From the NCBI GenBank assembly GCA_024137785.1, contig JAHRHZ010000235.1:1-64000 (forward strand): 64,000 nucleotides of DNA, in the 5' to 3' direction. Positions 8,921 to 51,900 of the stretch are shown piece after piece. The notes under the pieces were generated by a model, which saw only the letters and a list, made by a program, of their open reading frames with translations, did not search any database and had not been told where the DNA came from. A program made the translations under genes and the position numbers. The stretch is from Ginglymostoma cirratum (taxonomy: Eukaryota). Every line of letters starts with the position of its first letter. Position 1 is the first letter of the stretch.

Positions 8921-9244
8921 GCAATACCTCCACAGAGGCTGGTATCCCATCACCAAGTAACCCTTTATTTACACATGAACTGTCCTTGACTGTCGTGCCT
9001 CATACAGAGTCAAGCACCAAACAGTCAGAATCCCCAACCTTTTTCAGTCCGCGAGTACTCTTTCCGTTATATCCTTGCAAATGTTTGAACTTCTCTTTTG
9101 AAACCCAGTTGGGATTTTTTAATGACACTGAATCTTCGACACAATCTCACCTATCTTGATGCTCATCCTTGTCTGGTTAATTTTTTCCATTTCCTTCTCT
9201 TCTTTCAGTTCGTTTCGTTTCAGTAACATCTGAGACATTTCCAT

Positions 9245-9470
9245 GAAGCAAAAGTTGCTGGAAGCTCAGCAGGGATGGCAGCATCTGTGAAGAAAAGAAT
9301 CAGAGATAACGTTTTCTGTCTGGTGACCCTTCCTTAGAATGGACATTGGACCCAAAACGTTAACGCTGATATTTTTCTTTACAGATGCGGCCTGACCTTC
9401 TGAGCTTCCAGCAACTTCTATTTTCTGTTCATGATTTGCAGCGTTCACAGATCTTTCAGTTTTTATATTT
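9245..9470. mobile_element. Old palindromic (head-to-head) Penelope-tail/SINE element
   Basis: aagttgctggaagctcag...ctgagcttccagcaactt inverted arms with a degenerate hammerhead-like core in the middle. Confidence 0.6.
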
Positions 9471-9489
9471 CCATGGAGGATCTGTACTT

Positions 9490-10520
9490 TGATTTAATTT
9501 ATTGTGGTCACATGTACCTAAGTCGAATGAAAAGCTTTGTTTTGTGAGCAGTACAGGCAGATCAGAGCAAACAAGGACCTGCAGTTCAGAGGGTGCTTAG
9601 ACAGAGAGGAATAAAAAGTTACAGTTGCACAGGAGGTGCACAAAATGAGACCACCACGAGCAAGATCAATATTATTTGAAGTTAAAGCGGTGCAATCAGC
9701 AGTATAACAATGGCAGGGAGGAAGCTGTTCTTGAACCTGTTGGTGTATGCGTTCGAGCTTTTCTATCTTCTGCCCAACAAAAATGCCTGGAAGAGAGTGT
9801 TGCCAGGGTGGGAGGGCAGCTTTTCCATAACAACAAGAAGTGTAAATGTTGACCATAGATAGGAGTTCAGCTTCCGTGACGGTCTGGACTGTGCACACAA
9901 CTTTCCATTGTTTCTGATAGTGCTGGGCAAAGCAGTTGATGTACCAAGCCATTATGCACCCGGATAGTATACTTTCAATGGTGCATCTGTGGGAGTTGGT
10001 GAGGGTCCTTATGCACATACCGAATTTCTGAATTTGCCTGAGGAAAGAGGCTTTGTTGTGCCTTCAGGACCATTGCATCTCGGACAGATTGTCGGTTATT
10101 GTCACTCCCAGGAACTTAACACTCCGGACCCTCTCCACCTCAGCTCCGTTGATGTAGATCGGGGTGTGTGTTCCTTTCTCCAGTTGCTGAGTGTGGAGCC
10201 AAGATCTAGGTCTTATGAGTTTTATGATTAGTCTGGTAGGAATTATGGTGTTGAAGGCAGAAATGTAGTCGATGAGTCGGAGCCTGGAATAGATGTCCTT
10301 GCTATTTAGATGTTCCAGAGATGTTTTTAGCTCTAGGGAAATGGTGTCCGCTATTGGCCTGTTTTTACGGTCAGCAAATTGTAGAGGATTGAGGCAGGCT
10401 GGGAGGCCAGAGTTGATGTGGGCCATGACCAGCCTCTCGAAGCACTTCATGATTATTGAGTTCAGAGACACTGGGCGGTTGTCATTCATGTGTTTTCTTT
10501 AGTACTGGGATGATGGCCGT
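9490..10520 (-). mobile_element. Rex1/Babar-type LINE fragment
   Basis: NDNRPVSLNSIIMKCFERLV..LNPLQFA..; VERVRSVKFLGVTITDNL; RCTIESILSGCIMAWY. Confidence 0.8.
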
Positions 10521-11859
10521 CTTCTACTCGAAACCACCAGAGAGATGTTCCCAGCACTTCAATGGAAGGAAGGCGAATGTTTGCAGCAAGCCTGCACTGT
10601 GCTCTTGTGTACCTTGTTCGAAGGATTCCTTGTGATCTGCCAGCCTTCATCCCGGCCTGAAAACTACCTTGAACATTGGAAGGAAATGTCCAGGGTGCAG
10701 GTTAACATGGTGCAAAAAGCCTTTCAGCTGAAGCTCCAGTGTTTGTGCTCAGTGTGCATTTTCACTTTGTTCATTTCTCCCCTTTTCCATGGTAATGAAG
10801 AAAGTACTGTTGTTCGTACAATCTTTATTGTCTCAGGATATTCAAAGCTGTGTTCACAGTGCTGTCACGTTCACGTGGACAAGATGGTGAGTTCCCACTA
10901 ACAGCAAACGAATGACTGGACAAACCTGTTTTGGTCACTTGAGATGAATATTGAACAGGGCACCTGAGAGAATCTCTTCTGAGTGTTATCTTGTAGATCC
11001 ACCTGGTCTGTTCCTAATGTGCCCTCCATATCGCCCACTGGTGTCAGATAAGTTCTAGTATGACTGACCTTTAGGTTATTCATCATCCAATGATTATTTT
11101 GTCGTCTCTGTCTGAAGGATAAATGTTCGTTCTGATAACCACCCACTTTTATTTTATTCGGCTGCTAATGGATGGCAAGATTACCCATACTCCTCAGTGC
11201 TGTGCAAGTACTGCATAGACAGTAGATGGCTGCACTTTCACTGTCCCTGAACAATGCAAACTAGGGTCTGCTCGGATCCGACCAGCTCAATCTGCAGAGA
11301 TAGAAAGAGAGAGTGAAAGAGAGGACAGCTTTAGAAACAAAATGCTAATCGCACCAGAATGAAAATTTCACCTGTGATGTGGTACATCAATATATCTGTG
11401 GGAAAATACTTTGGCATGAGTTTTGATTGTCCGCACAGTGTGTGCTGCTTTGTTCACTCTGTGATGCACATAGACCCTGTCAATGTTGAGTTGCACAAGG
11501 TATATTTCCTCCTCTAAACCTGAAACACTCTCTCCATCTTACTTTACTCCTTATTGACCCTTCTAAAATTGTCCTTGTTCCCTCGCTCCATCCCGGTCCC
11601 AGAGGAATTGATGGCCAGTCATCATAACCCCACACTGGATGAAGGTTCATGTGAAGTGAGGCTGGTGTGTTGTAGCTTGGGCTCCAACCTCAGGACCAGA
11701 CGTAGGTGCCTGTTCCCTAATCTGCACATTGTTCTTTTTCCCTTCCTGATCACAGGCATTTTAATATTGTTTAACAAGTTAATGATGTAAATACATCAGC
11801 GCTGTTTATGGCTGGGATCATTTGACATCATGGTCCGAGTTTTCAATGGACTCTCACTC

Positions 11860-12690
11860 ATGACTTGTTTTTATTGCAAAAGTATACTTTATTTATAGAT
11901 GGAGATCTTTACGCACATACACAGATCATGAAGCCATTCAGATCTATACAGTCTTCACTTACAGAGAAGAAAACAAACATTGGGGTTCGGATTTCTGTAT
12001 ATTTACAGTTAACTTCTTGGCATATAGTTGAGGCATCAGGAAGAGTCTGATTACTGGATGAAACCCTGCTTTGCTTTGGCAGAAGGATCTTATACAATGG
12101 TCTTTCCCCACTGCCCCTTGGTGGCAGTTGCCCCAAGCTTTAGTATTGTCCCTGGAATGTGCTAGTTTGCAACACTCAGTCGGGATCAACTCTTTTGACT
12201 GGAAGACCAGAAAGTTTCGGGCAGACCAAAGTGGGTCATTCACTGATTTGTGAAGAAAAACACCTTTGACCACAAGTGCATCAGGCAGTGGTCAGCACGC
12301 AGCATCCTCGAGACCCATCGGGAAAAGGAGAGGGTGGATCTTTTCGAGTAGTTCCCTGTGCAGACTGCAAGTCATTCGGCAGAATGCCTCATTCCCAGGG
12401 CTTTCCAACAAGCACCGAGACATTGCTTGGCTGGTGGTGATAAGGAACCTGCCTGTGAGATCCTTTATGCATCACCAGTCTCCCTACACCACCGCACGCT
12501 GCCCTTGAAACTGCTGCGGGGGGAATGAGACTGTCACACAAATCCTTCTGGGATGTGCCTATGCAAAGGAAGTCTGGAGAGAAATGTAGTATTTTGTTTT
12601 GAGGCTTGACTTGAGCAGCTCCGTGATGCAGGACTCTGTGGTCTAAGCTCTGTTCAACCGGACACACACCGACACAAACATCAACTGGAC
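11860..12690. mobile_element. Tx1/L1-clade LINE 3' end with inverted 5' part
   Basis: Minus 11860-12255: LWSARNFLVFQ..ECCKLAHS; plus 12275-12690: AWLVVIRNLPVRSFM..RCP..C..ETVTQILLGC (zf-RVT-like). Confidence 0.7.
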
Positions 12691-12903
12691 CGTCATTGGA
12701 GATAACACAGTTTGAAATGTTTCTCTCCAACTTACCTGCTATTAAGAGGTTTACAAACGTGTTCTGGTGAGGACAGTGGGTCTTCAACACCATGTGATGT
12801 AGTGGGTGGGTGTTTGAATACTCATCCTAATATCATCTGGTCTTCAAAGAAAATGCTGTAGTTTGTGGGGCTTCATTTGAAATTAGATTGTACCCACGTC
12901 TTA

Positions 12904-15130
12904 TAGAACATATAGAACATACAGAACAATACAGCGCAGAACAGGCCCTTCGGCCCTCGATGTTGCACCGACCTGTGAACTAATATAAGCCCATCCCCCT
13001 ACAGTATCCCATTATCATCATCCATATGCTTATCCAAGGACTGTTTAAATGGCCTTAATGTGGCTCAATTAACTACATTGGCAGGCAGGGCATTCCACGC
13101 CCTTACCACTCTCTGATTAAAGAACCTGCCTCTGACATCTGTCTTAAATCTATCACCCCTCAATTTGCAGCTATGCCCCCTCGTACTAGCCGACGTCATC
13201 ATCCAAGGAAAAAGACTCTCACCTGTCCACCCTATATAATCCTCTGATCATTTTGTAGGTCTCTATTAAATCCACTCTTAGCCTTCTTCTCTCCAATGAG
13301 AACAGACCCAAGTCCCTCAGTCTTTCCTCATAAGACCTTCGCTCCAGACCAGGCAACATCCTGGTAAATCTCCTCTGCACCTTTTCCAATGCTTCCACAT
13401 CCTTCCTGTAATGGGGCGACCAGAACTGTACGCAATATTCCAGGTGAGGCCGCACTAGCGTTTTGTACAGTTGCAGCATGACATCACGGCTCCGGAACTC
13501 AATCCCGCTCCCAATGAAACCTAACACACCGTATGCTTTCTTAACAGCACTATCAACCTGGGTGGCAACTTTCAGGGATCTATGTACCTGAACACCAAGA
13601 TCCCTCTGCACATCCACACTACCAAGAATCTTTCCATTGACCCAGTATTCTGCCATCCTATTGTTCTTCCCAAAGTGCATCACCTCACATTTATCTGTAT
13701 TGAACTCCATTTGCCACCTTTCAGCTCAATTCTGCAGTTTATCAAGTCTCCCTGCAACCTGCAACATTCTTCCACACTGTCCACCATTCCACCCACTTTA
13801 GTGTCATCTGCAAAATTACTAACCCATCCACCTATGTCTGCGTCCAAGTCATTTACAAAATTGACAAACAGCAGTGGTCCCAAAACAGATCCTTGTGGCA
13901 AACCACTAGTAACCGGACTCCAGGCTGAATATTTTCCATCAACCACCACTCGTTGCCTTCTTTCAGAAAGCCAGTTTCTAATCCAAACTGCTAAATCTCC
14001 CTCAATCCCATGCCTCCGCATTTTCTCCAATAGCCTACCATGTGGAACCTTATCAAAGGCTTTACTGAAGTCCATGTACACCACGTCAACTGCCCTACCC
14101 TCATCCACATGCTTGGTCACCTTCTCAAAAAACTCAATGAGNNNNNNNNNNNNNNNNNNNNNNNNNNNNNNNNNNNNNNNNNNNNNNNNNNNNNNNNNNN
14201 NNNNNNNNNNNNNNNNNNNNNNNNNNNNNNNNNNNNNNNNNNNNNNNNNNNNNNNNNNNNNNNNNNNNNNNNNNNNNNNNNNNNNNNNNNNNNNNNNNNN
14301 NNNNNNNNNNNNNNNNNNNNNNNNNNNNNNNNNNNNNNNNNNNNNNNNNNNNNNNNNNNNNNNNNNNNNNNNNNNNNNNNNNNNNNNNNNNNNNNNNNNN
14401 NNNNNNNNNNNNNNNNNNNNNNNNNNNNNNNNNNNNNNNNNNNNNNNNNNNNNNNNNNNNNNNNNNNNNNNNNNNNNNNNNNNNNNNNNNNNNNNNNNNN
14501 NNNNNNNNNNNNNNNNNNNNNNNNNNNNNNNNNNNNNNNNNGCTTAACAAGAGATACAATTTCTTTTGTAAACCAAGGTTCCCTTACCTTATCACTTCCT
14601 CCCTGCCTGACTGGGACATACCTAACAAGGACACGCAATATCTGTTCCTTAAACCAGCTCCACATTTCGATTGTCCCCATCCCCTCTATTTTGCTACCCC
14701 ATTCTATCCCTCCTAAGTCTTGCCTAATTGCATTATAATTGCCTTTCCCCCATCTATAACTCTTGCCCAGTGGCATGTTCCTATCCCTTTCCATCGCTGA
14801 ACTAAACGTAACCGAATTATGGTCACTCTCTCCAAAGTGCTCACCTACCACCAAATCAAACACTTGGCCTGGTTCATTACCAAGTACCAGATCCAGTGTG
14901 GCCTCCCCTCGTTTCGGCCCTTCGACATACTGTGTCAGGAAACCCTCCTGCACACATTGGACAAAAACTGATCCATCCGACGTACTAGAGTTGTAGCATT
15001 TCCAGTCAATGTTGGGGAAGTTAAAGTCTCCCATAATGACCACCTTGTTCCTTTCACTCCTGCCCAGAATCGTTTTGCCAATCCTCTCCTCCACATCCCT
15101 GGAACTTTGCGGAGGCCTATAAAAAACTCT
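12904..15130 (-). mobile_element. Young CR1 LINE (EN-RT) spanning an assembly gap
   Basis: [37 protein letters not shown]; atagaac tail; possible gtcttata TSD. Confidence 0.93.
14142..14541. other. Assembly gap (400 N)
   Basis: Run of N. Confidence 1.
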
Positions 15131-15249
15131 CAGCTTGTCTTATAACTGTCTTACAAATATTGTTCTGATTTCTCTTCACAGATGCTGCCAGACCTGCTGA
15201 GATTTTTCAGCAAATTCTGCTTTTGTTTCTGATTTACAGTATCCGCAGT

Positions 15250-15975
15250 TACAGAGTCATAGAGTCATACAGGTATACAGCACGGAAACAGACGCTCCGG
15301 TTCAACTCATCCACGGCAACCAGACATCCCAAATAAATCCAATCCCATTCGCCAGCAAATGACCCATATTTCTCTAAACCTTTCCTATTCATATACCCAT
15401 CCAGATGCCTTTTAAATGCTGTAATTATACCAGCCTCCACCACTTTTTCTAGCACCTCATTCCATACATACACCACGCTCTGTGTGAAAAAAGTTGCCCC
15501 TTAGGTCCCTTTTAAATCTTTCCCCTCACACCTTAAACCTCGGCCGCTCACTTTTGGATTTTTCTATCCCTGGAAAATGACCTGGTCTATTTACGCTATC
15601 CATGCCCCTCATGACTTTATAAACCTCTATAAGGGTCATCCCTCTGCCTCCAACATTCCAAAGAAAATAGCCCCAGCTGATTCAGTCTCTCCCGGTAGCT
15701 CAAGCCCTCCAATCCCTGGCAACATCCTTCTAAATATTTCTGAATCCTTTCAAGTTTCGCAACTTCCTTCCTGTAGCAGGAAGCTCAGAATTGCAAGCAG
15801 TATGACAATAGTGTCCTAAAAATGTCCTGTATAGCAGCAACATGACGTCCTAACTCATATATCCTATGCACGGACCAACAAAGGCAAGCAGACCAAGCAC
15901 TTTCTTCACACCCCCCCACCCCGTCTACCTGTAACTCCAATTTCAAGGAACTATGAAACTTCACTCCAAGTTCTC
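15250..15975 (-). mobile_element. Older CR1 3' fragment
   Basis: VWNE..E.VVEAG.IT.FKRHLDGYM and tatgactc tail. Confidence 0.8.
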
Positions 15976-16465
15976 CTTTATTTTGGTTTCTATAGATATT
16001 GTATTTGGAATTTATTTATGGAATGCCAATTTGTAATAAAAAAATCCTGTTCCGTTTTGTAGCTCAGTTGTTGTATTTGTCAATGAATGTTCCCTGAGAC
16101 ACTAAGAGTTGACACAACACACCATTTGTCTCTGTGACCTTCAGCTGCTACACGAAATATGGAATTGGATTCCTTTTTACTGAATCACCTCATCAAAACC
16201 AAATACAACTGAGAAAATATAAACCAAACCAATTTCCCAAGGACAGTTATCACAACATGACAACAAACTGAGCAACAGACAGTTCCTGTCCCCTCTCTCC
16301 AGGAGTGTCACTGTTCGTGTCCGCTCTCTCCGGGAGGTCTTGCTGTCATTGTCCCCTCTATCACTATGGGTACAAATTTACGATCTTTTCTGTCTGAGCA
16401 TGTTACTCATCCTGTTCCCCGTCTCTCAGGGTCAGGGTGGGGGTGTCACACTCACCCAGATTGTC

Positions 16466-16570
16466 TTTTCTGATGAATGGTCTAGGCCCGAAACGTCAAG
16501 CTTTCCTGCTCCAATGACGCTGCTTGGCCTGCTATGTTTATCCAGCCCCACACCTTGTTACCCCCTACAA
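16466..16570 (+). mobile_element. 105-bp Penelope-tail/hammerhead insertion with 10-bp TSD
   Basis: Flanked by ccagattgtc at 16456-16465 and 16571-16580; CTGATGA at 16470, GAAACGTC at 16490-16497. Confidence 0.8.
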
Positions 16571-18439
16571 CCAGATTGTCAGTTCCATTTACTCTCTTGT
16601 GAAATGGGTAATCCCTGCTTCCCTAAACTGAGCCGTGTGTCAGAGCCTGGCACAGCTCACCCTTCATCTCAATCAGATCACAGGGTCTAAGGTTGGTCAG
16701 TACAGTCTGGACCCAGAACAACAACACTGACTGACTGGATACAACCCAGATCAAGTCACAATGAGACTGATATTGACCTTCACACTCAAAGCCCACCAAG
16801 GAGCTGGTCATTTGTCTCAATGTTACCACAGAGTCAGTTCTCTCAGAAATTCATGATTCATTCTGCATTTTAAACAGGGGAGCGATGCTGTGAAGGGAAA
16901 AGGTGGGAAGGTATGGAGAGGAAACAAGGAGGAGAGAGAATTGTATTTCTATTACACCGTCCATGAGCTCAGGATGCTTGAAGATGTTTTACAGCCAATG
17001 GAATATTCCGAAGTCTAGCCGTTGTTGCAATGTGGGAACTGGGACAGCCCATTTACTCTCAGCAGTCTCCCACAGTAACAGCGAACTATTGACCAGGGCA
17101 TCGGGGGTAGGACCCCGGAGTGGAGAATGGGACAGGCTGGCAAACTAAACCCAAGCAGCCAGTGAGTTCTGAGTATTGGGCTGTGTGGGAGGGAGATGCT
17201 AAAGGAAAGGGGCTTCATGGAATTCATTCACAGGATATGGGGGCACTGGCTGTGCCAGCATTTAATACCAGTCCCTGTTGGCCCTTGGTGAAGTTGGTGG
17301 TGAGCTGCCTTCTTGAACTGCTGCAGGCTATGTCCTGTAGACAGACCCACAATGCCCTTGGGGAGGGAATTCCAGCATTTTGACCCAGCGTCAGTGAAGG
17401 AACGGCGACATATTTGCAAGTCAGGATGGTGAGTGGCCTGGAGGGGAACTTGCAGGGAGTGGTGTTCCCATGTGTCCGCTGCCCTTGTCCTACTATATGG
17501 AAGTGGCGGTGGGTTTGGAAGGTGTTATCTTAAGGAAGCTTAGTGAGCGGGTATTGGTGGTACAGCTGTCTGAAAATGATCACCTCTCTACAGCCAGTGG
17601 TCACTCCCTTTCCTTTTATATCAGTGAGACCTGTCAATAAATAACTCCTGGTCAGTCATATCAACGACAACAACTTGTATTGATGTACCATTTTTAATAT
17701 ATTAACCATTCAAAAGGTGAGCACGTACAGTGTTTGCGTTGATGACCAAAAGGAGCCAAAGAGCTCGTTCTATGCAGTGAGAGGGGTTTGTGGAGGAAAT
17801 TCCCGTGTTGAGGGCTTGGGCGACTGAAGGCACAGTTGCCAGCCATGAGGTGGAAGGCCAGATTGGAGAGTTTTGGAGATAAGGTAGGGTTTGTGGACAA
17901 CCGTGTGGTCCATTGCATCGCCTCCGCCTGCGGGAGACAGGGGAGAGGAATCGGGAGGCTAGGCAAGGCACATCATTTGGAAGCACCACCCAGAGACTGG
18001 AGGCTGTACTGCAGGCAGGCTCCAAACCAGTTCTGCTGTGAGGGAATGAGACTGAAGCACACAAGAACATGAGAAATGGAAGCAGGCGGAGGCTCCCAAT
18101 GCCAGTCTATACTTTCTTAAATACAGGAACCAAAATTGTACACAGTACTCCCAGTGCAGACTCACTAACTCACTTTACAATTATAACAAGATTTCTACAT
18201 TTTTAAATTCCAACCCCCTGCAATAAAGGTTAAAATTACATTTTCCCTGTGACTGGGGAGTGAGGGGGAGACCCAGGCCCAGGCCCCTGTGACTGGGGAG
18301 TGTGGGGGAGCCCCGTCGATGATGGTGGATGGGGTGAGTGGGGGCAGCCAGGCTCTGAGCCTGTGACTGGAGACTTTGCAGCATTCAGCAGGTTAATATA
18401 TTGCCCACTGGTTGAGTGAATGGATCTGTGTGGATTTGA

Positions 18440-19052
<613 letters not shown>

Positions 19053-19351
19053 GTCCGGACACTGTGACCTGCTGCATATTTCCGAGGAGATGGACACTGA
19101 GAAGATTGTGTTGAAACGAACGGTGCATCGGGTGGCTGGATATTTCAGGATCTGACTGTGGGATTTGTCTCTCATTCCTTTCATAATGTCAGTGGAGGTG
19201 ATCATCCTACAGCAGCCGTACACTGCTGGGGCACGTCTTCCTGGTTTCCTGTGACTGATGACACACTCTGAGGTTTCATCTTTAGTTTAATCTTCATGTG
19301 AAACTCTACTGCAGCTTTAAGACATTCGAGTTGATAATTCCCAGATTCCCT

Positions 19352-19528
19352 CAGCTGCTTTGACCACTGTCCCTGCTGACTGCTCTTTGTTAAAAGTAGT
19401 TTCAGAGCAAAGACATTTTACTGTCACTTCCTCTTGAGGCTTATACCTGCTGCTGCATTTGCATAGCGCAAATCCTTCACTTATCACCAACAGCTATTGA
19501 CCAGTAACTCACTGGAAAGTACCAGCTG
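19352..19528. promoter_or_regulatory. Candidate 3' light-chain enhancer
   Basis: CAGCTG 19352-19357, CACTTCCTC 19425-19433, ATTTGCAT 19457-19464, GGAAAGTACC 19514-19523 (1 mismatch to kappaB), CAGCTG 19523-19528, in non-repetitive-looking DNA. Confidence 0.55.
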
Positions 19529-21269
19529 CTTTCTCCTAACCTTCTCTCCCAGCAAGAGCTCCCTTTAGTAAGTGTCCTCTAGTCAAGTCCTACCCCCTGA
19601 CCAGCACAGGGACCCTGAGCAAGCATTCTGTCTTATCCTTTTTCTGCAGGCAGGCACAGAGGTGTCCGGTACATGAATCACAAAATTAATACACAACGTT
19701 AGCAAATGATGAGGAAGGTAGATGGAGTGTTGGTGTTTATTGAAAAGGGCTGTTGATGAGGTCTCATGTGGAGACCTGTGTATACTTTTGGTCTCTTTTA
19801 AGGAAGAGTATCAAGGGCTGTGGGGGAAAAGGCAGGAAAATGGAGTTGAAGATCATCAGATTAAACCATAATCTCATTGAATCAGGGAGCAAATGTGATG
19901 GGCTGAATGAGTTAATACAGCTCCTGTATTTTATGACTTAATTATCGCAGAATTTGTTCAGAGACCATTCACTGAACTCATTCCTGGGATGACGGAGTCA
20001 TCCTCTGAGGAAAGGTTGGAAGTGCTGTACACATTGGAGATTAGAGAAGGAAAGATGATCCCATTGAAACACATTGGTTCCTGAGGGATAAAGACGAGAC
20101 ACTGAGAGGCTTTCTGACAGGATCTCCCTGCCTGAGGCTTTGTTTCCCCGTAGATACCCTGTCTCTGGGTTGTCCTGATGGATTATTTCCCAGTGACATA
20201 ATTGTTTCCTTTCTCTGCATTTCCCAGGATCTGGAGCATCATCGGGAAGTTTTCCTCAATGGGATCCAAGGACAAGAAATTGCCCTGCTCAGGGCCAGCT
20301 GCCCAACTCTTTGTACATTCAAGTCCTTCCTCATTCAGGAATGCAATCTGACAGATCGTTGGTTTGTGTATTGTAGAACAAGAAATGTTATATTTTATAA
20401 TCAGCACCTTCTTGTCATTTTCATTGGAAGCCGTTGTTGTTTGGGCATCTCATTGATTTAATACTGTGAGTGGGTTCATGCTACAGGCACTGGGAAGGAT
20501 GAAGGGCTGTCAGAAATCCAGAGTTTGCTGATTCATCACCTTGACCAGGCGAACTGATAAGTGTTCTGGGGAAAGGTCAGTGGACCTGAAATGCTTACTG
20601 ATTTCTCTTCACAGATACTGAAATTATCTATCTTGTTTCTTTAACTTTCAAACAGGATCGATATTCAACGTTGTTAAAATTTGGGGAAATTTTATGTTTA
20701 ACTTGCAGCAGCCTGTTGTCCCAGGGAACAGGTTCGTGTTGTTGGTCTGATCATCTGTAATGCCAGCTGCTCCCAATTGCTCGCCCTTTTAAAACCATCT
20801 CTTGGGGCAGCTTATATTTGTAAAAATTGTCTTTTCAAAAATAAACTAACTCACTGATGTTGGTCTACCTGTGCTCTGTGCTCGTGCTATACTGCTGGCC
20901 CTTCAGCTAGATGTACAGGAAGATCCCAATTCTTTCCCTTTCACCTCAAACCATTTGATTGGTGTTAATGTGACCACATCCTGGACAGAAGTGGGATCGT
21001 CAGTCAGTGATTGCACTCTGTCCTGTAAATCTCAGTTACAGACACATTGATCCCGTTGTTCCAGGTTTAACTGGAATATGGGAACAGGGGCCAGGATATG
21101 ATCACAACTTGTCCTGACACAGCACACTCCCTCCCTTCCCCTCCTCAAAACAAATCTGAAATCACCAACTGGGTTTCACACTGAGATCGAATTCAAGGAG
21201 GGATGACATGCTGCAAAGCTGAGATACACACCCACAGACATTCTGAGTGGCAGCCACTCATAGACTCAA

Positions 21270-22700
21270 CTGCACACATCTGCAGACAGTACTACGTATC
21301 AGCCACACACACACTCAAATACACACAGCTACAGACAGCACTGCGTTTCAGCCACACACACACTCAACTACACACAGCTACAGACAGTACTGCGTATCAG
21401 CCACACACACACTCAACTACGCACAGCTACAGACAGTACTACGAATCAGCCACACACACACTCAAATATACACAGCTACAGACAGTACTGCGTATCGGCC
21501 ACACACACACGCAACTACACACAGCTACAAACGGTACTGCGTATCAGCCACACACACACGCAACTACACACAGCTACAAACAGTACTGCGTATCCGCCAC
21601 ACACACACTCAACTATGACACGAAGATGACACGAAGATTGGGGGAGTAGCATAAAGCATAGGGGATTGTCAAAGAATACAGGAGAATATAGATAGACTGG
21701 AGAGTTGGGCGGAGAAGTGGCAGATGGAGTTCAATCCGGGCAAGTGTGAGGTGATGCATTTTGGGAGGTCTAATTCTGGAGCGAACTATAATGTAAACGG
21801 AAGAGCCTTGGGAAAAGTTGATGAGCAGAGAGATCTGGGAGTTCAGGTCCATTGTACCCTGAAGGTGGCTGCACAGGTGGATAGAGTGGTCAAGAAGGCA
21901 TATGGTATGCTTGCCTTCATCGGACGGGGTATTGAGTATAAGAGCTGGCAGGTCATGTTAAAATTGTACAAGACTTTGGTTCGGCCGCAATTAGAATACT
22001 GTGTACAGTTCTGGTCGCCACATTACCAAAAGGATGTGGAAGCTTTGGAGAGGGTACAGAGAAGGTTTACGAGGATGTTGCCTGGTATGGAAGGTGCTAG
22101 CTATGAAGAGAGGTTGAGTAGGTTAGGATTGTTTTCATTAGAAAAAAGGAGATTGAGGGGGGACCTGATTGAGGTCTTCAAAATCATGAAGGGTATAGAC
22201 AGGGTTGATAGAGATAAGCTTTTTCCCAGGGTGAGGGATTCAATAACGAGGGGTCACGCGTTCAAGTTGAGAGGAGAAAAGTTTAAGGGGGATACACGCG
22301 GAAAGTACTTTACACAGAGGGTGGTAGGTGCCTGGAACGCGTTGCCAGCAGAGGTAGTAGAGGCAGGCACGGTAGATTCATTTAAGGTGCGTCTAGACAG
22401 ATTCATGAGTAGGTGAGGAGCAGAGGGATACAGATCCTTAGGAATTGGGCGATAGTTTTAGACAGTGGATTTGGATCGGCACAGGCTTGGAGGGCCGAAG
22501 GGCCTGTTCCTGGGCTGTAAGTTTTCTTTGTTCTTTGTTCTTTAACTACACACAGCTACAAACAGTACTGCGTATCCGCCACACCCACACTCAAATACAC
22601 ACAGCTACAGACAGTACTGCGTATCAGCCACACACACACTCAAACACACACACCTACAGACAGTACTGCGCATCAGCCACACACACACACACACACACAC
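21270..22700. repeat. 49-bp CA-rich minisatellite interrupted by a CR1
   Basis: Unit cacagctacagacagtactgcgtatcagccacacacacactcaactaca; period 49. Confidence 0.9.
21616..22543 (+). mobile_element. Young 5'-truncated CR1 LINE
   Basis: RT C-terminal ORF 21724-22416; (ttgttct)n tail; aacta TSD; near-identical to 47108-48030. Confidence 0.93.
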
Positions 22701-23029
22701 CTACAGATAGTACTGAGTAACAGTCACATACAGTGTCAGAGACACAGTGAAATACAGCGCTGGGTAACAGTTGCACTCATCCTCAGAGACACCTGCAGAG
22801 TTTACTGGAAAACAGTCACATACACACAGATACACAGCTACAGACAGGACTTGGAAAAAACCACATTGACACACATGGGTACACACCAATAGACAGCACT
22901 AAATGAAATACCTGCTCTCAGAAAGATACACTGACAGAACACTGAGACACACATCCACACTGAGAAATATACCAATACACAGTATCGGGAAACAGTTACA
23001 TCCACACTCTCAGATATACCTACATATAG

Positions 23030-23231
23030 CATTGGATAACAGCCATACCCACACTGACAGACACACTGACAGACTGCATTGGGTAACAGTCATACCCACA
23101 CTGACCGATATACAGGCAGACTGCATTGGGTAACAGTCATACCCACACTGACCAATATACAGGCAGACTGCATTGGGTAACAGTTACACCCACACTGACC
23201 GATATACAGTCAGACTGCATTGGGTAACAGT
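23030..23231. repeat. 47-bp tandem repeat, about 4 copies
   Basis: gcattgggtaacagtcatacccacactgaccgatatacaggcagact at 47-bp period. Confidence 0.85.
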
Positions 23232-24065
23232 GGTCGGTGGTGTAGCAGTTGGTGAGCCTGGGAGCGACTTCACCCAGTGCGGGTGAATGTGTGCCCAGCA
23301 TGGGGGAAGGTGAGCCCTCACAAGGAAAGCCACTGTGGAGCTAATGCAGGCCCAAGGCTTAAGGCAGGACAATAATATTTAACTTTTAACTTTCTTTCTT
23401 TGCATTTCTACATTTTACTAGGAATAACTACTGGTGAATGTTATAACTGAATTCTTTATTTTTCTATTTTGATAGTTAAGATTTTGTAAACAGCTCCTTT
23501 TGTACTGAAGATGGATTTGGGAATGGTGACCTTGTACACTTTTCCCTGTACTCCTGTACCTCTGTACTTGAGTACATGTTACAGTAAAACCTAATTCTAA
23601 ATCTAAAATGTATGCTGTGCGATCCTGACTGATCCCTTCTCTGAACTAAGACCTCAGTCAGTTCAGTTTTGAGCTGTCACTGTGAGAAACAGGCGAAGAT
23701 GGGAGAAATGAACATGCCAATTGCAGCCTCCAGCATCTGGGATTGGCCTAAACTCATTTCAAACGTTACCCAGCAGAGACTGCACAGTACGATCCCACCA
23801 GCTGGGTCTGGACCAAAACAATGAAGAGTAAATGCCTCAGATTGTAATGATTAGGTCCTAGCAGTTTCCAGTTTCCATTCTGTTTGGAATCTTGGAAACG
23901 CAACAGATTCTAGATGAAAGGGATGATTTGAAAATGATTGATGTTAGGATCTAAATTCAAATTCACCAATCAGAGCAATCCTTTGCTGAAATAGAGCCAT
24001 TCAGCTGAGGGGAGGTGTGGTCAATTCTCAAAGCATTCAGAGACAGAGACTGAACCTTCTTCATC

Positions 24066-24071
24066 TTTATT
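24066..24071 (-). terminator. Candidate polyadenylation signal (AATAAA) of the light-chain gene
   Basis: tttatt on +, about 525 nt downstream of the C stop codon. Confidence 0.6.
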
Positions 24072-24596
24072 CCCTTTTCCAGATTGATATTGACAGAAAA
24101 AACACTGCAATTAACAGCCCAGACAGAGGAAGCTGCACAAATTCACAGCCACGATGGAGCTTGAGGAAAACACTTGTGGAGATTTTCTCAATAACACGAG
24201 AATCCTGCCCCTTTAAACAGTGACAAAACCTTAAATTGAAACTGACGGCTGAGCAGGAAGGAGGTCTGGTTCGCTGAAGCAGAGACTTCTGAGGTTCACA
24301 TTGTTTTTGTACAGCTGACAGTATTCTGCATCTTTGAGAGGTTTTACTTGACATCACAAGTCAACACTTTCCCCATCAAACACGCCCAGGACAGCAATAG
24401 CATGGTGTTAAATACAGAATAAAGCTCCCTCTACACTGTCCCAATGACCTGCCATAACCCCTGAACCTCAGAAGTCGCCGAGCCAGTCCCAAGAAGGAAG
24501 AGAGTTGAAATTCTGTGCTGACAATGACCTTTGTCCTGCTAGCTCAGCCCTGTTCTATTTAAAGTTGTGTCTACTCTGTGGACTGTCTCAAACACG

Positions 24597-24925
24597 CTAC
24601 ACACATTCTGATCTCCTGATGCTCTTGATGAGGGGAGAGGAGAGGGTGACGTGGGTGAGGGCACAGGAGAAGCGAGCGTTGGACTCCCAGTCAGAGGCAG
24701 AGAGGGTCAGCAGGCTGCTGACACTGTAGGTGCTGTCCGAAGCGCGCAGGTAGTTGCTGGTCTGAACCCCGTCCGAAATGACTGCACCGTCCTTCTTCCA
24801 CTGCACCTCCAGCTCTTCGGGAAAGAAGTGCTTGGCAACGCAAACCAGGGTGGCAGTGCCATTGTCCTGGACTTGCTCCGGGGAGGGGGGCAGCAGGGTC
24901 AGCTTGGGCTGAGACATCTCACGGC
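24597..24925 (-). CDS. Ig light chain constant (C1-set) exon
   Basis: Acceptor ttgtcattcag|gc in phase with J; S-REMSQPKLTLLPPS...ATLVC...W...YSVSSLLTL...W...FSCALTH...SECV-stop, with penultimate Cys for the H-L bond. Confidence 0.96.
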
Positions 24926-25249
24926 CTGAATGACAAGAGCAGCAATTTTAATTCCTGCCATTCAAAGAGAATTCAATTTACCAAACATTGATATGTAAAA
25001 TAATCCATCTGAACATTTGCAACCAATAGACAACAAACCGAACAAAAGAGTGAATGTACATTAAAATTCCTTTTTGATGGTTGATATTGGATACCCCCAC
25101 CCAGAGTAAATTCTGTGCCCTCACCACCCTCAGCGCTTCCTCCAAGTGCTGTTCAAACTGGAGGAGAGACTGATTTATCAGCCGAGGAAGACTAGTACGT
25201 GGTAATCAGTGGGAGGTTTCACAGAATCATACAGTACTGAAAAGCCCAT

Positions 25250-28200
25250 TCGTCCCATCAAGTCTGTACCATGAACGCTGCACTAAATCTGCTCTCCACC
25301 CACTTTCTATAACTGGGCCGATAACATTGAATGTTGCGATATTTCCGTGGCACATTCAAGTACGTTAGAACAGTTGTGGAATTACCCACCTGTTCCCTTC
25401 CCAGACAGTGTATGCCACTCCACAGCACTGGGTGAAAAAGCCTCAACCTTCTCTGTTCCAAAGAAAACAACCTGAGCTTATCCAGTCCCTCTTCGTCACT
25501 GAAACCTTCCATCCCAGGGAACATCCTGGTGAATCTCCTCTGCACCCCCTCCAGTACAATCACATCTTTCCTATAGTGTGGTGGTCAGAACTGCAGACAG
25601 TGCTTCAGCTGTGGCTTAACTAAGGTCCTGTACAGCTCCAACATACCCTCCTTGCTCTTATAATCTATATCTGAAATGATAAAGATGTGTGTCCCATATG
25701 CCTTCATAGCTGCCCTCTAAACCTGCTCTGGCACTTTCAAGGATCTATGGACAATCATCCCAAGATCCTACTGTTACTCTGAGATTCCTAGTGTCCTGAC
25801 ATTCATTGAGTACTCCCTTGTCTTGTTATTTCCTCTAAAGTGCCTCACCTCACATTTATCAGGCTTATATTCCAGCTGCCTCTGATATGCCCATCTGACC
25901 AATCCAGTTATATCCTCCTGTAACATAAAACCTTCTTCCTCACGTTCAAACTTCCGGCCAATGTTCATATCATCCACAAACTCAGTTATCCTCCCCTCCC
26001 CCATTCTCATCGACATTGTTCCTATATATCACAGTGAGGGAGCCAGCACTGACCGCTGTGACATCCCAATGCACACTGGGCCCAGTCACACAAACAGCCT
26101 TCTCCCGTCATCCTCTGTTACCAGTCACGAAGCCAACTTTGGATACAACTTGCTAACTTATACCTCATGGGCCTTTACCTTCTTTATCCGCCTCCCAAGT
26201 GGGACCTTGCAAAGGCCTTGTTGGAATCCACATAACCTACATCAACTGCACCCCCCGTCACCTACAAAACTGGTCACCTCCTCGACAAAATCCCACCAGA
26301 CTTAGTGGCCATGACCTCCCTCTGAAAAAGCCGCGTTGACTATCCCTGAAATGGAGATTCATTCCACCTTCAGAATTTTCTCCAATCACATTCCTAACAG
26401 TGATGTGAGACTCACTGGTTTCCTTGACCATGTTTGACCTGATGCCATGAGACATTGTCCAGAGTCAATGTTGGGGACTCCCAGAGTCATTCCTTCCCGA
26501 CTGTATCCCACTGTGTCACCACCTCTGTTGGGTTTGTCCCGCTGGTGAGACAGGACATACCCAGGGATGGTGATGGCGGTGTCTAGGACCTTGTCTGTAA
26601 GGTCCGATGCTGTGAGTATGACTGTGTCAGGCTATTGTTTGACTTCTCTATGAATTTGGCACTAGGACCTAGATGTTAGTAAGGATGGCAGAGCAGGGTA
26701 GACAGTGTGGTGTTTGATGGTGTTTCCGATGCCAAGGTCGATGCCAGGTGGATCGTCCGATTTCATTCAATTTTTGAGAGTTTTTGGTGATTTTTACAAC
26801 GGAGCAGCTCGCTCGGCCATTTCAGAGGGTGGTTAAGAGTCAGCCACGCTTCTGTGGGTCTGGAGTCACATGTAGGTCAGACCAGGTAAGGATGGCGGAT
26901 TTACTTCCCTGAGGGACATCATCCTTTATCTCAATATGTCTTTAACAAACCTCTGATCACTCACAGATCAGGAGCCACTATTTAAGAAAGGAAAAGTCAG
27001 GGAATTATAGAGCGGTGTACCTGACATTGATGGTGGGAAAGTTGTTGGAGACAATCCTGAGGGCAGGATTTACATGTGTTTGGAAAGGCATGGACTAATC
27101 AGGGATAGTCAACATTGCTTTGTAAGTGGGAAATCGTGTCTCACTAACTTGATTAGTTTTTTGTAGGAGGAATGAAGTAGATTGATGAGGGCAGAGCAGT
27201 GGACGTGACCTATATGGAGCTCAGTAAGGCATTCAGAAAGTTTCCTCACGGTAAGTCTGCATAGCGAGGTTAGAGGACATGGAATACAGGGTGAACCAAC
27301 TCTTTGGAGATGGAACTGGCTCGAAGGTATAAAACAGAGAATGGTGGTGGAGTGGTCTTTTCAAACTAGAGCACTGTGACCAGCGGTATGCCACAAGAAT
27401 CGGTGCTGGGTCCACGGCTTCTCATCATTTATATAAATGATTTGGATGTGAACATAAGAGGAATAATTCGTAAATTTGTAGATGGCACCAAAATTGGAGG
27501 TATAGTGGACAGCGAAGAAGGTTACCTCAGAGTACAAGGGGATCTTGTACAGAAGGGCCAATGGGCTGAGGAGAGTTAGATGGAATTTTATTTAGATAAA
27601 TGTGATTTGCTGCATTTTGGAAAGGCAAATCAGAGCAGGACTTATACTCTGAATGGTAAGGTCCTGGGGTGTGCTGTTGAACAAAGAAGCCTTGGAGTGC
27701 AGGTTCATTTTTCCTTGGAAGTGGAGTCATGGGTGGCTCGGATAGTGAAGACAGTGTTTGGTACGCTTCCCCTTATGAGGAAGGGGATTGGGTATATATT
27801 TGGATCATATTTGGTCATTTTCAAGCTGTATAGCACATTGGTTAGGCCACTATTGGAATACAATGGGCAATTATGGTCTCCTTGCTATAACAAGGGTGTT
27901 GTGAAACTTAACAATGCTTCGGTAAGATTTATAAGGTTGTTGCCAGGTTTGCAGAGATTGATCTATCGGGAGAAGCTGAAAAGGCTGGGGCTAATATCCC
28001 TGGGGCGTCAATGGCTCAGGTGTGACCTTATTGAGGTTTATGAAATAAACATGAACATGGATAGGATAAACTGGTAATGTCTTTTCCCAGAGGCACGTTT
28101 GTTAAAAACTAGAGGGCATTGGAGTAAGGTGAGAGGGGAAATATTTAAAAGGTACCTTTGGGGTAACATTTTCACGCAGAGGGTAGTGCGTGTATGGAAT

Positions 28201-30007: not shown

Positions 30008-30074
30008 TTTCCTGCTCCTATGATGCTGCTTGACCTGCTGTGCTCATCCAGCCCCATGCTTGAAAGACAGTCCC

Positions 30075-30730
30075 TCTGACTTTGCAGGGGTCCCTCAGTA
30101 GTGACCCTCTAACAGTACAGCACTCCCACAGCACAGACCCTCTGAAAGTGCGGTGCTCCCTCATTACTGACCCTGTGACAGTTCCGCGGTCCCTCAGTAC
30201 TGACCCTCTGACAGTGCGGCACTCCCTCAGCACTGACCATCTGACAGTGCGGCCCTCCCTCAGCACTGACCCTCCCACAGCACATTACACACTCAGTACT
30301 GACCCTCCGACAGTATAGCTTACCCTCTGTACTGACCCTTCAAACATGCAGCACTCCCTCAGTTCTGACCCTTCGATAGTGTAGAGTTCCCTCAGGACTG
30401 GCCCTCTGACAGTGCAGCACTCCCAGAGTACTGACCTTCTGACAGTGCGGCACTCCCTCAATACTGACCCTCTGAAATGCGGCGCTTCCTCAGTACTGAC
30501 CCTCTGACAGTGCAGCACTCCCTGAGTACTGACCCTCTGACAGTGCAGCACTCCCTCAGTGCTGATCTTGCGAAAGTGCGGCGCTTCCTCAGTACTGACC
30601 CTCTGACAGTGCAGCACTCCCTGAGTACTGACCCTCTGACAGTGCAGCACTCCCTCAGTTCTGACCCACTGACACAGCAGCACTTCCTCGCCACTGACAT
30701 TCTGACAGTGCGGCACTCCCTCAGTACAAC
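30075..30730. repeat. 33-bp minisatellite (cagtactgaccctctgacagtgcagcactccct) expanded inside a Deu-domain-type SINE
   Basis: About 20 units at 33-bp period; SINE-like flanks at about 28660-28912 and 30730-30790. Confidence 0.85.
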
Positions 30731-36474: not shown

Positions 36475-36523
36475 CTGCGATGCAGAATGCCAGAGGCCAG
36501 ATCAGCTGGATGTGTGAAATCAT
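36475..36523 (-). CDS. Ig kappa-type (type III/NS4-like) light chain, leader exon
   Basis: acc-ATG at 36523; encodes MISHIQLIWPLAFCIA-G (hydrophobic signal peptide); phase-1 donor gcag|gtacaa; 186-nt intron to the V exon. Confidence 0.93.
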
Positions 36524-36582
36524 GGTGTGTGCTCCTGTCCCAGTGCTTGGTTCCCGATAAACTCTCCCTTCACTGAGCCCTG

Positions 36583-36682
36583 CTTTATAAAGCGGCAGCC
36601 TGTGAGAGTCTCACTGGCTGTTCCTCAGTATGTAAATTGCATCAGGCAGAGAGAGAGCCACATCAGACCCTCGCACTTCCTC
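36583..36682 (-). promoter_or_regulatory. V-gene promoter: TATA, variant octamer, two Ets/PU.1 boxes
   Basis: ctttataaag 36583-36592; ATTTACAT (7/8 octamer) 36630-36637; GAGGAA 36621-36626; GAGGAAGTG 36674-36682; all within 160 bp of the ATG. Confidence 0.75.
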
Positions 36683-37209
36683 TTCTTTATTTCACTCTCT
36701 CTCTCCCTCCCTCAATCATTCACTCCTTCTCTCTCACAATTTTTAGTTGTTTTTAGCCTTTTTGGGTTTTAGCATCGCTGCCTGCACCAGAATTAACTGC
36801 ACATCCCCGAATGCCCAGAGGTAGTTTCGACTCACCCACATTGCTGTAGGTGTGGAATCACATGTATTCCTGTCCAGGTAAAAAGGCCAGTTTCCTTCCC
36901 TGAATGACATTTGTGAATCAGGTGGGTTTTAATGATGATTTTATGGTCACCAGAGACTTTTAATTTCCAATTATTTCTATTAAATTCATGTTCCACCACC
37001 TGTTAAGGAAGAATATTATGCTCCCCAGAACATTCCCTATGTCTCTAGATCAATGATCCAATGATAATAGGCCGTCACGTCCTTCAGTCCCTCACAATCA
37101 CCTTTCCCTCTTTCTCCCACGCACACCATTCTTTCACACTCACTGTCATTCACTCTCTTTTATCTGTTTCTCTATTTATTTCTCTCTCTCTCTCTCTCTC
37201 TTTCTGTCG

Positions 37210-48945: not shown

Positions 48946-51900
48946 AAGTGACAGAGAAGAGCACACAGACACAGAATTTATAGGGAGAGAGATCAAGGGC
49001 AGAAAGATCGAACGATCAAAAGATCAGACAACTGGTGCAAGTGGAATGTCAAATAATAAGCTTTGCAGGTGACCAACAGTTATTAGGCGGTGTGAGTAAA
49101 ACGTCAACGGCTGAATAACAAGTGAAGAGATGACCTATAACCCGATTAAATGAAGCAGAGAGATAGTTACAAAAAAAACTATAAGTAAGGTGTTACTGGA
49201 GATAAACCAAATGATTGGAATAACCTGCTAGGCATAAGAGTTGCATGCCGAGGGTCTAACCAAACTAATGATTAACCCAAAACTGTACAAACTAATAAAC
49301 GTAAAGAGATCATATCAATTTTTCAAGGTGATAGTGCCAAAACAGAACAGGTAAGGAAGGTTTTACAGACACAGAACAGTGTGGTGTAGTCACATGTAAG
49401 CAACGAACCCAAGATCATAATTGAGACCGTCTTCATGGGTATAGAACTTGGCTATCAGTTTTTGCTCGGCGATTCTGCTGTGTATCTAGTGTGTATCTCA
49501 AAGTCCACCTTGGAGAACACTTACCCAAAGATTGGAATGTCCTTGACCACTGAAGTGTACGCCCACTGGGAGGGAACATCCCTGTCTGGCGATTGTGTGG
49601 TGTCCATTCATCCGTTGTACAATCTACATTGTCTCGCCAATATACCATGCCTTAGGGCATCCTTTCCTGCAGCTTATCAGATAGACAAAATTGGCTGAAT
49701 CACATGTGTACCTGCCGTGTACGTGGTGGGTGGTGTTCCTGCGTGTGATGGCAGTGTCCATATCAGTGATCTGACATGTCTTGCAGAGGTTGTCATGGCA
49801 GGGTTGTGTAGTGTTGTCCTGAAAAATGGCCTGTTTAAGGTTTGGTGAGAAGTGGAGGCGTAGGGATGATCTTGGTGAGAGGCTCATCTCATCAATGACA
49901 CGTTAAAGTCTGCGAAGAATATGTCGTAGTCTCTTCACTCCCTCAGCTTGATTTGTATGCTTAAGCTGGCAGAAGATGCATTAATGCCAGATTCAGCAGC
50001 CCCGCTCACAAGATAATGCAGAACATCACCCAAGCACAATGCAACACCATCCGTGCTTTCAAGTCCAATTGCAATATTGTTATTAAACCAGCAGACAAAG
50101 GAGGAGCCATCGTCATAAACAATAGAATGGACGACCGCAAGGAAGAGTACCAACAACTGAACAGCCAGGAACACTACAGACAATTATTCTCCAGCATCTG
50201 CAGTACCTTTTATCTCTCACACTACAGACAATTACCTGCCGCTGCAACCAAAGAACACACACATCAGCTCAACAGACTGATCAAGATCTGTAATCCAGAC
50301 GTTCAGAGTATCCTGTGCATTCTCATCCTGTGTACTTCTCGCATAGGAGACGACTTCTGCCTTCCGATGATACACAGAGCCACAGAACACTTGGACGTCG
50401 CATTGTATCAGGCAATGGGATGCTGTGTGGGAACTTCTCTGGCTATGTCAAGGGCATCCTGAAGCCCACTGTACAAGGAACCCCTGGCTTCTATCATGAC
50501 GCTTTCTTATGGAAGCTCAGAACCTGCAAACCAGTCGAACCAGGAGCATTCCTCATCATGATGGACGTTTCGGCACTCTACACCAGCATCCCCTCTGATG
50601 ATGACATTGCCACAAAAGCCTCAGTACTCAATATCAACAACTGCCAATTTCCAGACTCTATCCTACAACTTATCCACATTATCCTCGACCACAATGTCTT
50701 CACCTTCAACAGCCAGTTCTTCATCCAGACACATGTAACAGCCATGGTGACCAAATTTGCATCCTAATATACCAACGCTTTCATGCACAAGTTTGAGCAA
50801 GACTTCTTTGCGGTACAGGACCTCCAACCAACCCTATACACCAGATACATGGATAACATTTTCTTCTGTTGGACTCATGGCGAGTAACCACTGAATCAAC
50901 TAGATAGCAATATCAACAAGTTTCATCCCACTATCAGACTTACCATGGACTCCTCTTCAGAGTCAGTATCATTCTTAGACAAACGCACTTCCATCAAGGA
51001 CGGACACCTCAGTACCTCACTCTACCGGAAGCCAAGGATAACCTCATAATGCTGCACTTCTCTAGCTTCCACCCTAAACCTGTTAATGAAGCTATCCTTA
51101 ACGGACAAGCCCTGCATTGCGTTCCTCCTCTGCTCAGATGAGAAGGAATGTGATAGCCACCTAAAGATTTTAAAGTGCATCGTCATAAGGATGGGATACA
51201 ATCGTCAACTCATTGATCGCCACAGTGAAAAACGGCAATGACCTCCTCAATATACAGAACCAGGATACAACTGATAGAGTACCTTTCATAAAACAGTACT
51301 CCCCCGGGGCAGAGAAACTATGTCACATTCTTTGCAGCCTTCAACATATCATTGATGATTAGCATCTTGCCAAGATCTTCCCACCAAGATCACATTTAAA
51401 CGTCTACTTCTTGCCTTCAAACAACCTTCAGCGTGTCAAACTTTAAACAGACCATTGTTCGCAGCAGACTACCCAGTTTTCAGGACAACATCGACCACAA
51501 CACCACACAACTCTGCCATGGCAACCTTTGCAAGACATGTCAGATCATTAACGTGGATACTGCCATCACATGTGGGAACACCACCCAGCACTTACGCAGC
51601 AGATATTCATGTGAATTGGCCGATGTTTTCCATCATATGCTGCAGGCAAGAATGCCCCAATGCATGGTATATTGGCAAGACCATGAAGACACTATGACAA
51701 TGGATGAATGCACACCATGCAATAATCACCAGACAGGGATGTTCCCTCCCATTCAGGGAACACTTCAGTGGTCAAGGACATTCAGCCTCAAATTTTCAGG
51801 TAAGTGTCCTCCAAGGTGGACTTTGAGATACACAGCAATACAGAATTGCCGAGCAAAAACTGATAGTCAAGTTCAATACCCATGAAGATGGCCTCAACTG

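Follow-up and report, generated by a model that had tools for sequence, protein, structure and literature searches.

The window, as we call the whole 64,000-nucleotide stretch analysed here, carries on its minus strand an immunoglobulin light-chain gene with normal splice sites, whose leader, VJ and C exons add up in frame:

24597-24925, minus strand: light-chain C exon, intact, ending ECV-stop (stop codon at 24597-24599), 88% match to nurse shark P0024
35959-36288, minus strand: VJ exon, germline-joined and in-frame
36475-36523, minus strand: leader exon; leader, VJ and C are in frame with 49+330+329 bases
36580-36684, minus strand: V promoter, with a AAGAGGAAGTG box and, after it, octamer-like ATGCAATT (the two within 36630-36684), and with TATA-like TTTATAAA

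The match of the C domain to P0024 stands against 45-51% for the next C exons in the genome. We take P0024 to be NS5, and on this footing the window light chain is likely sigma-2 (NS5, sigma-cart), a label that is likely rather than proven. Names in the databases read kappa-like or lambda-like, and when named records were searched with the VJ exon, six matches came back at 70-75%, none of them from nurse shark. The assembly holds four C exons of the isotype. Four NS5 genes are described for nurse shark in excerpts of PMC2435157, NS5 is given as sigma-2 in excerpts of PMC5985310, and PMC2193156 covers NS4, not NS5.

Downstream of the C exon, 5057-5257 bases 3' of its stop, lies the interval 19340-19540 (the element), which an earlier note on this DNA had put forward as a candidate light-chain 3' enhancer built of five motifs. 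A re-scan finds all five, 5.1-5.3 kb 3' of the C stop:

19352-19357, no strand assigned: E-box 1 CAGCTG; TAGCTG in both other copies of the same genome
19422-19431: EICE-like word GGAAGTGACA, one mismatch against GGAANNGAAA, in the IRF half
19422-19425, minus strand: would-be IRF half-site, GACA where GAAA is expected; GTCA in a related species' major duplicate
19425-19435, minus strand: PU.1/Spi-type box AAGAGGAAGTG, holding the 9-mer GAGGAAGTG at 19425-19433
19457-19464, minus strand: perfect octamer ATGCAAAT, intact in 2/7 copies
19514-19523, minus strand: kappaB-like word GGTACTTTCC, one mismatch, in the GGG half
19523-19528, no strand assigned: E-box 2 CAGCTG, abutting the kappaB-like word (motif scan of the window)

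The 11-mer AAGAGGAAGTG of the element is identical to the PU.1 box of the window gene's V promoter, and the one other perfect octamer found in a scan of the 64-kb window lies at 50755. The PU.1 box does sit in a word one mismatch from an EICE, as the earlier note had said; the reading of that word as an EICE fails, because its IRF half is GACA in the window and GTCA in the related species, and the exact EICE GGAANNGAAA was not found in 19200-19700. The kappaB-like word at 19514-19523 does not satisfy GGGRNWYYCC, and a MEF2 site is not present in the element.

The element is part of an intron of a decayed, co-duplicated RABGAP1L 3' end that stands tail-to-tail with the light-chain C exon:

18449-18559, plus strand: decayed RABGAP1L exon, residues ~814-850 of P0008
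18709-18813, plus strand: decayed RABGAP1L exon, residues ~849-884; splice donor lost (GG)
18969-19052, plus strand: decayed RABGAP1L exon, the last before the element, residues ~884-913
19247-19684, plus strand: RABGAP1L intron block with the motif cluster, 82-86% identity to C124:2023826-2024253 and C235:113543-113992
20228-20270, plus strand: what is left of the last RABGAP1L coding exon after truncation; the window copy has lost the two exons ahead of it by deletion

All 21 protein matches (21/21) come from cartilaginous fishes and are named as RABGAP1-like or Rab-GAP TBC proteins, and the best-conserved segment in the neighbourhood, 18690-18800, turned out to be coding in origin. The window copy of RABGAP1L is non-coding. 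Its upstream exons are absent, two exons are deleted, one donor is lost and the last exon is truncated, and the changes in its exons (10/188) are close to the intron rate. An intact RABGAP1L is found on C124, with exons of its 3' part at 1990077-2027160, again tail-to-tail with a C exon of the same isotype; the C124 copy of the element falls within the RABGAP1L intron between 2023244 and 2025777, and exon order and DNA are collinear with the window. The tail-to-tail RABGAP1L/light-chain segments span 9054-21242 in the window, C124:2016443-2030200 and C235:112164-123896. Broken RABGAP1L 3' ends have been copied with at least two clusters in this genome and with several in the related species. 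RABGAP1L and the light chain carry the same longest-contig figure in all three species (3/3) listing both, which suggests that the two lie on one chromosome; adjacency is not implied by that match. The tail-to-tail RABGAP1L may serve as a synteny anchor for this light-chain isotype. Among the papers that could be searched, none linked RABGAP1L to shark immunoglobulin or light-chain synteny.

Of the four C exons of the isotype, only that of the window belongs to an intact-looking gene, and it alone has an octamer alongside. Cluster D (C235:68300-77462) has split V and J segments with 12- and 23-base RSS spacers and is inverted relative to the window gene; it has stops in leader, V and C, an altered PU.1 box in its promoter, and lacks the entire flank. 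Cluster B is represented by an orphan C exon (C235:119600-119926), open with a three-residue read-through; no V or J was found in ~30 kb of gap-free upstream DNA, and its octamer is broken. The C exon on C124 (C124:2029744-2030063), the closest to nurse shark P0024 (96/98 residues), is frameshifted by one base, and a deletion at its 3' end removes the last Cys and the stop; its flank is devoid of an octamer, and the V of this cluster would fall in an assembly gap. The N run that follows this C exon starts at C124:2031586, and a rearranging gene as well as contig C235 may belong there. Three of the four isotype clusters thus have the look of dead or incomplete ones, though a rearranging gene may lie in an assembly gap.

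Elsewhere in the window, a 596-codon open frame at 539-2329 has a weak reverse-transcriptase match and is presumably that of a Penelope-like retroelement. Minisatellites with units of 33-49 bases occupy 21226-21615, 22548-22732, 22987-23231 and 30072-30727; two of them border an inserted LINE-like fragment, which lies between the element and the C exon.

For this list of motifs the cluster is rare. Across 274,385 non-N bases, the single pair of octamer and GAGGAAGTG within 200 bp is that of the window. Four motif classes per 200 bp are reached in the window flank, in 0/14 other light-chain C 3' flanks (13 of 92 C-exon matches, chosen as light-chain-like by score, plus sister cluster D) and in 0/15 non-immunoglobulin 10-kb blocks (a single one of them 90% N); the maximum in these controls is two classes in the C-exon flanks and three in the other blocks. 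Under a second-order Markov null, 64 kb would hold 0.005 loose four-class clusters (1 event in 12 Mb) and 0.02 strict octamer plus PU.1 pairs, rates that understate chance because the motif classes were fixed after the window had been seen. The exact pair of PU.1 followed by octamer (gap 10-40) is found at 83 places in the genome, none of them near the other C exons among those listed.

The octamer is typical of immunoglobulin V promoters. It raises the idea that the element is an orphan V promoter, or else a dispersed repeat, and about one third of the 83 genome-wide pairs do lie in a repeat-tail-like context, judged by eye. A common shark repeat is a few changes away from the PU.1-octamer motif pair. 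Against this origin, the sequence is collinear with a RABGAP1L intron, and neither promoter nor leader homology was detected: V promoter and leader DNA compared with 17.5-21.2 kb by blastn gave nothing better than E 0.45, the best match being the 11-base PU.1 box common to the V promoter and the element, and a search with the leader peptide gave a 7-residue match only, at E 0.05 and away from the element. The order of an immunoglobulin V promoter (octamer, then TATA, then leader exon) is not found at the element, nor are the many genomic copies of a dispersed repeat. The element is low-copy, with matches in three places in 4.36 Gb (a match search, read with a caveat on common words) and 4-5 contigs per sequencing run in the related species. 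A comparison across 270 kb of DNA gave no repeat coverage of the element, no tandem repeat occurs at it, and 17000-25500 has no Rfam match. The earlier note's view that this is not a V promoter is upheld, and the repeat that it had named as grounds for abandoning the proposal did not materialise; we regard an orphan promoter or repeat as very improbable.

The genome holds three copies of the element, each 5.1-5.7 kb behind a C exon and in the same orientation. The entire non-repeat flank at 16-25 kb is common to the copies at 77-90%. Recurrence 3' of sister C exons was considered as support for an enhancer and rejected, because the entire flank was co-duplicated and recurrence is not independent support. 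The recurrence that the earlier note had proposed to look for is real behind two sister C exons, by co-duplication, and duplicates of the element exist in the related species too; that no comparable cluster was found within 10 kb of 13 other light-chain C exons argues against an enhancer.

Excess conservation is not in evidence, the element being no more conserved than the surrounding DNA. Three-way invariance is 0.73 in 19340-19540 vs 0.76 for all non-coding flank. On the window branch, changes number 15/192 in the element vs 47/881 in the intron flanks (P 0.18), the wrong direction for constraint. When 30-base windows are ordered by invariance, the one that starts at 19447 and takes in the octamer comes 240th of 259, and the one from 19407, at the PU.1 box, 3rd of 259. 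A 22-base invariant run at the PU.1 box was considered as proof of constraint and rejected, the chance expectation being P 0.84. The E-boxes fared no better as parts of the element, both being labile and not conserved. In the three own-genome copies the PU.1 box is present in 3/3, the octamer in 1/3, the kappaB-like word in 2/3 (identical in the C235:113.8k copy, with two mismatches in the C124 copy), E-box 1 in 1/3 and E-box 2 in 2/3.

These observations suit the view that the intron came with the duplicated cluster as a neutral passenger and is decaying, its motifs being inherited or chance words. In its favour are an element divergence at least equal to that of the flank on all three branches, the commonly held 16-25 kb flank, the 83 genomic occurrences of the PU.1-octamer pair, the restriction of the complete five-motif set to the window copy, and the state of the E-boxes, the first being found, of the three own-genome copies, in that of the window alone and the second differing by one CpG-type change. 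Against it, each null that was applied makes the cluster rare, and motif states in the related species and in the sister clusters, given below, point the other way. We hold neutral passage to be a serious possibility, somewhat short of an even chance; if it is true, co-duplication can mimic the conservation of a motif cluster.

Further observations concern the 3' flanks. The most distal 3' segment common to all four clusters is 23729-23960; of the four copies only that of the window has an IRF-Ets-like word, at ~23875, and an E-box there is also not conserved. On C168, at ~93150, 28 bases separate an octamer from GGAAAGGAAA, 5.3 kb 3' of another light-chain C exon, a pair that was not counted because the two sister clusters of that exon do not have it.

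In the related species, one low-depth copy resembling that of C124 was found together with several duplicates that have the window's 390-base deletion, from which we infer that the duplication is older than the species split. The intact RABGAP1L introns of the two genomes differ at 37/931 bases; between them the element region differs at 20/399 vs 16/512 in the upstream intron, which again favours a neutral history. The intact copy of the related species has the same 9-base gap as that of C124 and no octamer, so that the octamer is missing through this gap from both copies in an intact RABGAP1L, one per species. It is intact in the window copy and in the related species' major duplicate, and is broken by differing substitutions in three duplicates, among them two minor duplicates of the related species, one of which is also altered in the PU.1 flank. 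E-box 2 is present in the window copy and the intact copies and reads CGGCTG in the remaining duplicates seen.

The major duplicate has a depth of 36 vs 7 and 62 vs 14, depth not being equal to copy number. It differs from the window at 29/215 bases, yet keeps 27/27 bases of the PU.1 9-mer, octamer and kappaB-like word, four bases of the last being counted as kept by the number of differences. This joint retention of the three rarest motifs in a high-depth duplicate speaks against neutral passage, with a binomial P of 0.02, or 0.08 allowing for four duplicates. In this duplicate both the EICE-like extension and the E-box next to the kappaB-like word are lost, and over all the motif bases of the earlier note whose state is known it differs at 2/35 (P 0.13; 0.43 over four duplicates). 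Across seven copies, motif columns are variable at 4/23 vs 35/103 for the others (P 0.09, from two close species only). The related-species contigs measure 292-464 bases, linkage to light-chain genes being beyond their reach; ~30 bases at the ends of their alignments are unlisted, and the states of E-box 1 cover the window's own genome only. A metagenome scan with the PU.1 context, for an outgroup to the 9-base indel, gave 0 matches. Two reads from one run cover 19335-19550 and are evidence neither way; neither is from the window copy, because both are under 95% alike. A second run gave 0 reads there, which likewise says nothing.

The GGAA core persists in 7/7 copies and the PU.1 9-mer in 6/7, in two species and including both intact RABGAP1L introns. 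Together with the third rank of the 30-base window at 19407, this may suggest an old element of the ancestral locus, centred on PU.1 and active across blood cells for either RABGAP1L or the light-chain gene, the other motifs being incidental. However, 31% of columns are variable, at which rate ~18% of 9-mers would have one variable column or none, and the lone PU.1 word is common (115 loose matches in 274 kb); we consider such an element quite unlikely.

Our main reading, which we put only narrowly ahead of neutral passage and to which we give a probability of roughly 0.45, is that the PU.1 box and the octamer act jointly as a 3' B-cell enhancer of the window light-chain gene. By analogy with mammalian enhancers, PU.1 or Spi-B would bind AAGAGGAAGTG, and Oct-1/2 with OCA-B would bind the octamer ~20 bases from the PU.1 box, the kappaB-like site perhaps assisting the complex. 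The complex would then loop ~17 kb to the V promoter, which has the identical PU.1 11-mer and an octamer-like site. Neither the E-boxes nor the EICE-like extension would be needed, and the octamer would be retained only beside a linked light-chain gene that is still alive. The octamer does follow gene intactness in 4/4 own-genome clusters, an agreement expected about 1 in 4 times by chance; its presence beside the sole intact-looking gene is consistent with function, but weakly so, and it counts to the same slight degree against neutral passage. Against an enhancer, the octamer is broken in 3/5 duplicates, roughly the expectation of neutral decay, and the C exon nearest to P0024 is that of C124, which has no octamer in its flank. 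On sequence grounds the evidence for enhancer function is borderline.

A bolder version, which we consider unlikely, would place a sigma-2 enhancer inside the RABGAP1L intron, a 9-base micro-duplication having made the octamer in the duplicates, where it was kept only behind living genes. Shark immunoglobulin genes are arranged as autonomous miniclusters, so each must bring its own control elements; if the enhancer does lie in the RABGAP1L intron, each new cluster had to bring its piece of RABGAP1L. If true, an immunoglobulin enhancer would have been caught at birth in an intron that hitch-hiked along, with no earlier shark light-chain enhancer defined by its sequence in our searches. The locus offers a natural allelic series, with copies that have or lack the octamer beside living and dead genes. 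Among the papers that could be searched, none defined a shark light-chain enhancer, or a shark immunoglobulin enhancer at all. The available part of PMC12227049 treats light-chain linkage and has no mention of RABGAP1L or enhancers, the available part of PMC2192082 does not mention enhancer or octamer, and PMC3014032 has enhancers only in its reference list.

Among known systems, the nearest gene organization is that of nurse shark NS5/sigma-2, with four V-J-C miniclusters, some germline-joined, and 12/23 RSS in a split cluster (PMC2435157, PMC5985310, excerpts); in those excerpts no enhancer or RABGAP1L link was found. The duplicated human IgH 3' regulatory regions resemble the locus in that a 3' flank was copied with a constant gene (PMC8269369, in part). 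They differ in being multi-enhancer regions of proven function, whereas the copied flank in the window consists of an unrelated gene's broken 3' end. The kappa 3' and distal enhancers and the lambda 3' enhancers of mammals and birds share with the element a place 3' of a light-chain C exon and PU.1, kappaB-like and E-box words. In available portions of PMC3972084, the sites that define kappa and lambda enhancers are E-box, NF-kappaB and PU.1-IRF4, with MEF2 in addition for lambda. Their conserved core is a PU.1-IRF4 composite (PMC3972084, PMC8269369, both in part), whereas the window element has no IRF half and no MEF2 site; in the chicken lambda enhancer, mutation of the IRF4 half cut activity (same sources, in part). 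The earlier note had assigned the motifs to the factor classes of mammalian kappa enhancers, a match seen in the PU.1, kappaB-like and E-box words and not in the octamer, given in the figure legends of PMC3972084 (in part) for the IgH intron enhancer and not for the three kappa enhancers. The element is not to be filed as a kappa-type enhancer, because the PU.1-IRF composite and conserved E-boxes were both looked for in vain. The IgH intron enhancer E-mu, with PU.1, octamer and E-boxes (PMC8269369, in part), is like it in combining a PU.1 site, an octamer and E-boxes within ~200 bp (PMC3972084, PMC8269369, in part). E-mu lies in the J-C intron, whereas the window element, a candidate only, lies 3' of C in a neighbour's intron and its E-boxes are unconserved. 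By this analogy the element resembles E-mu in vocabulary and a light-chain 3' enhancer in position.
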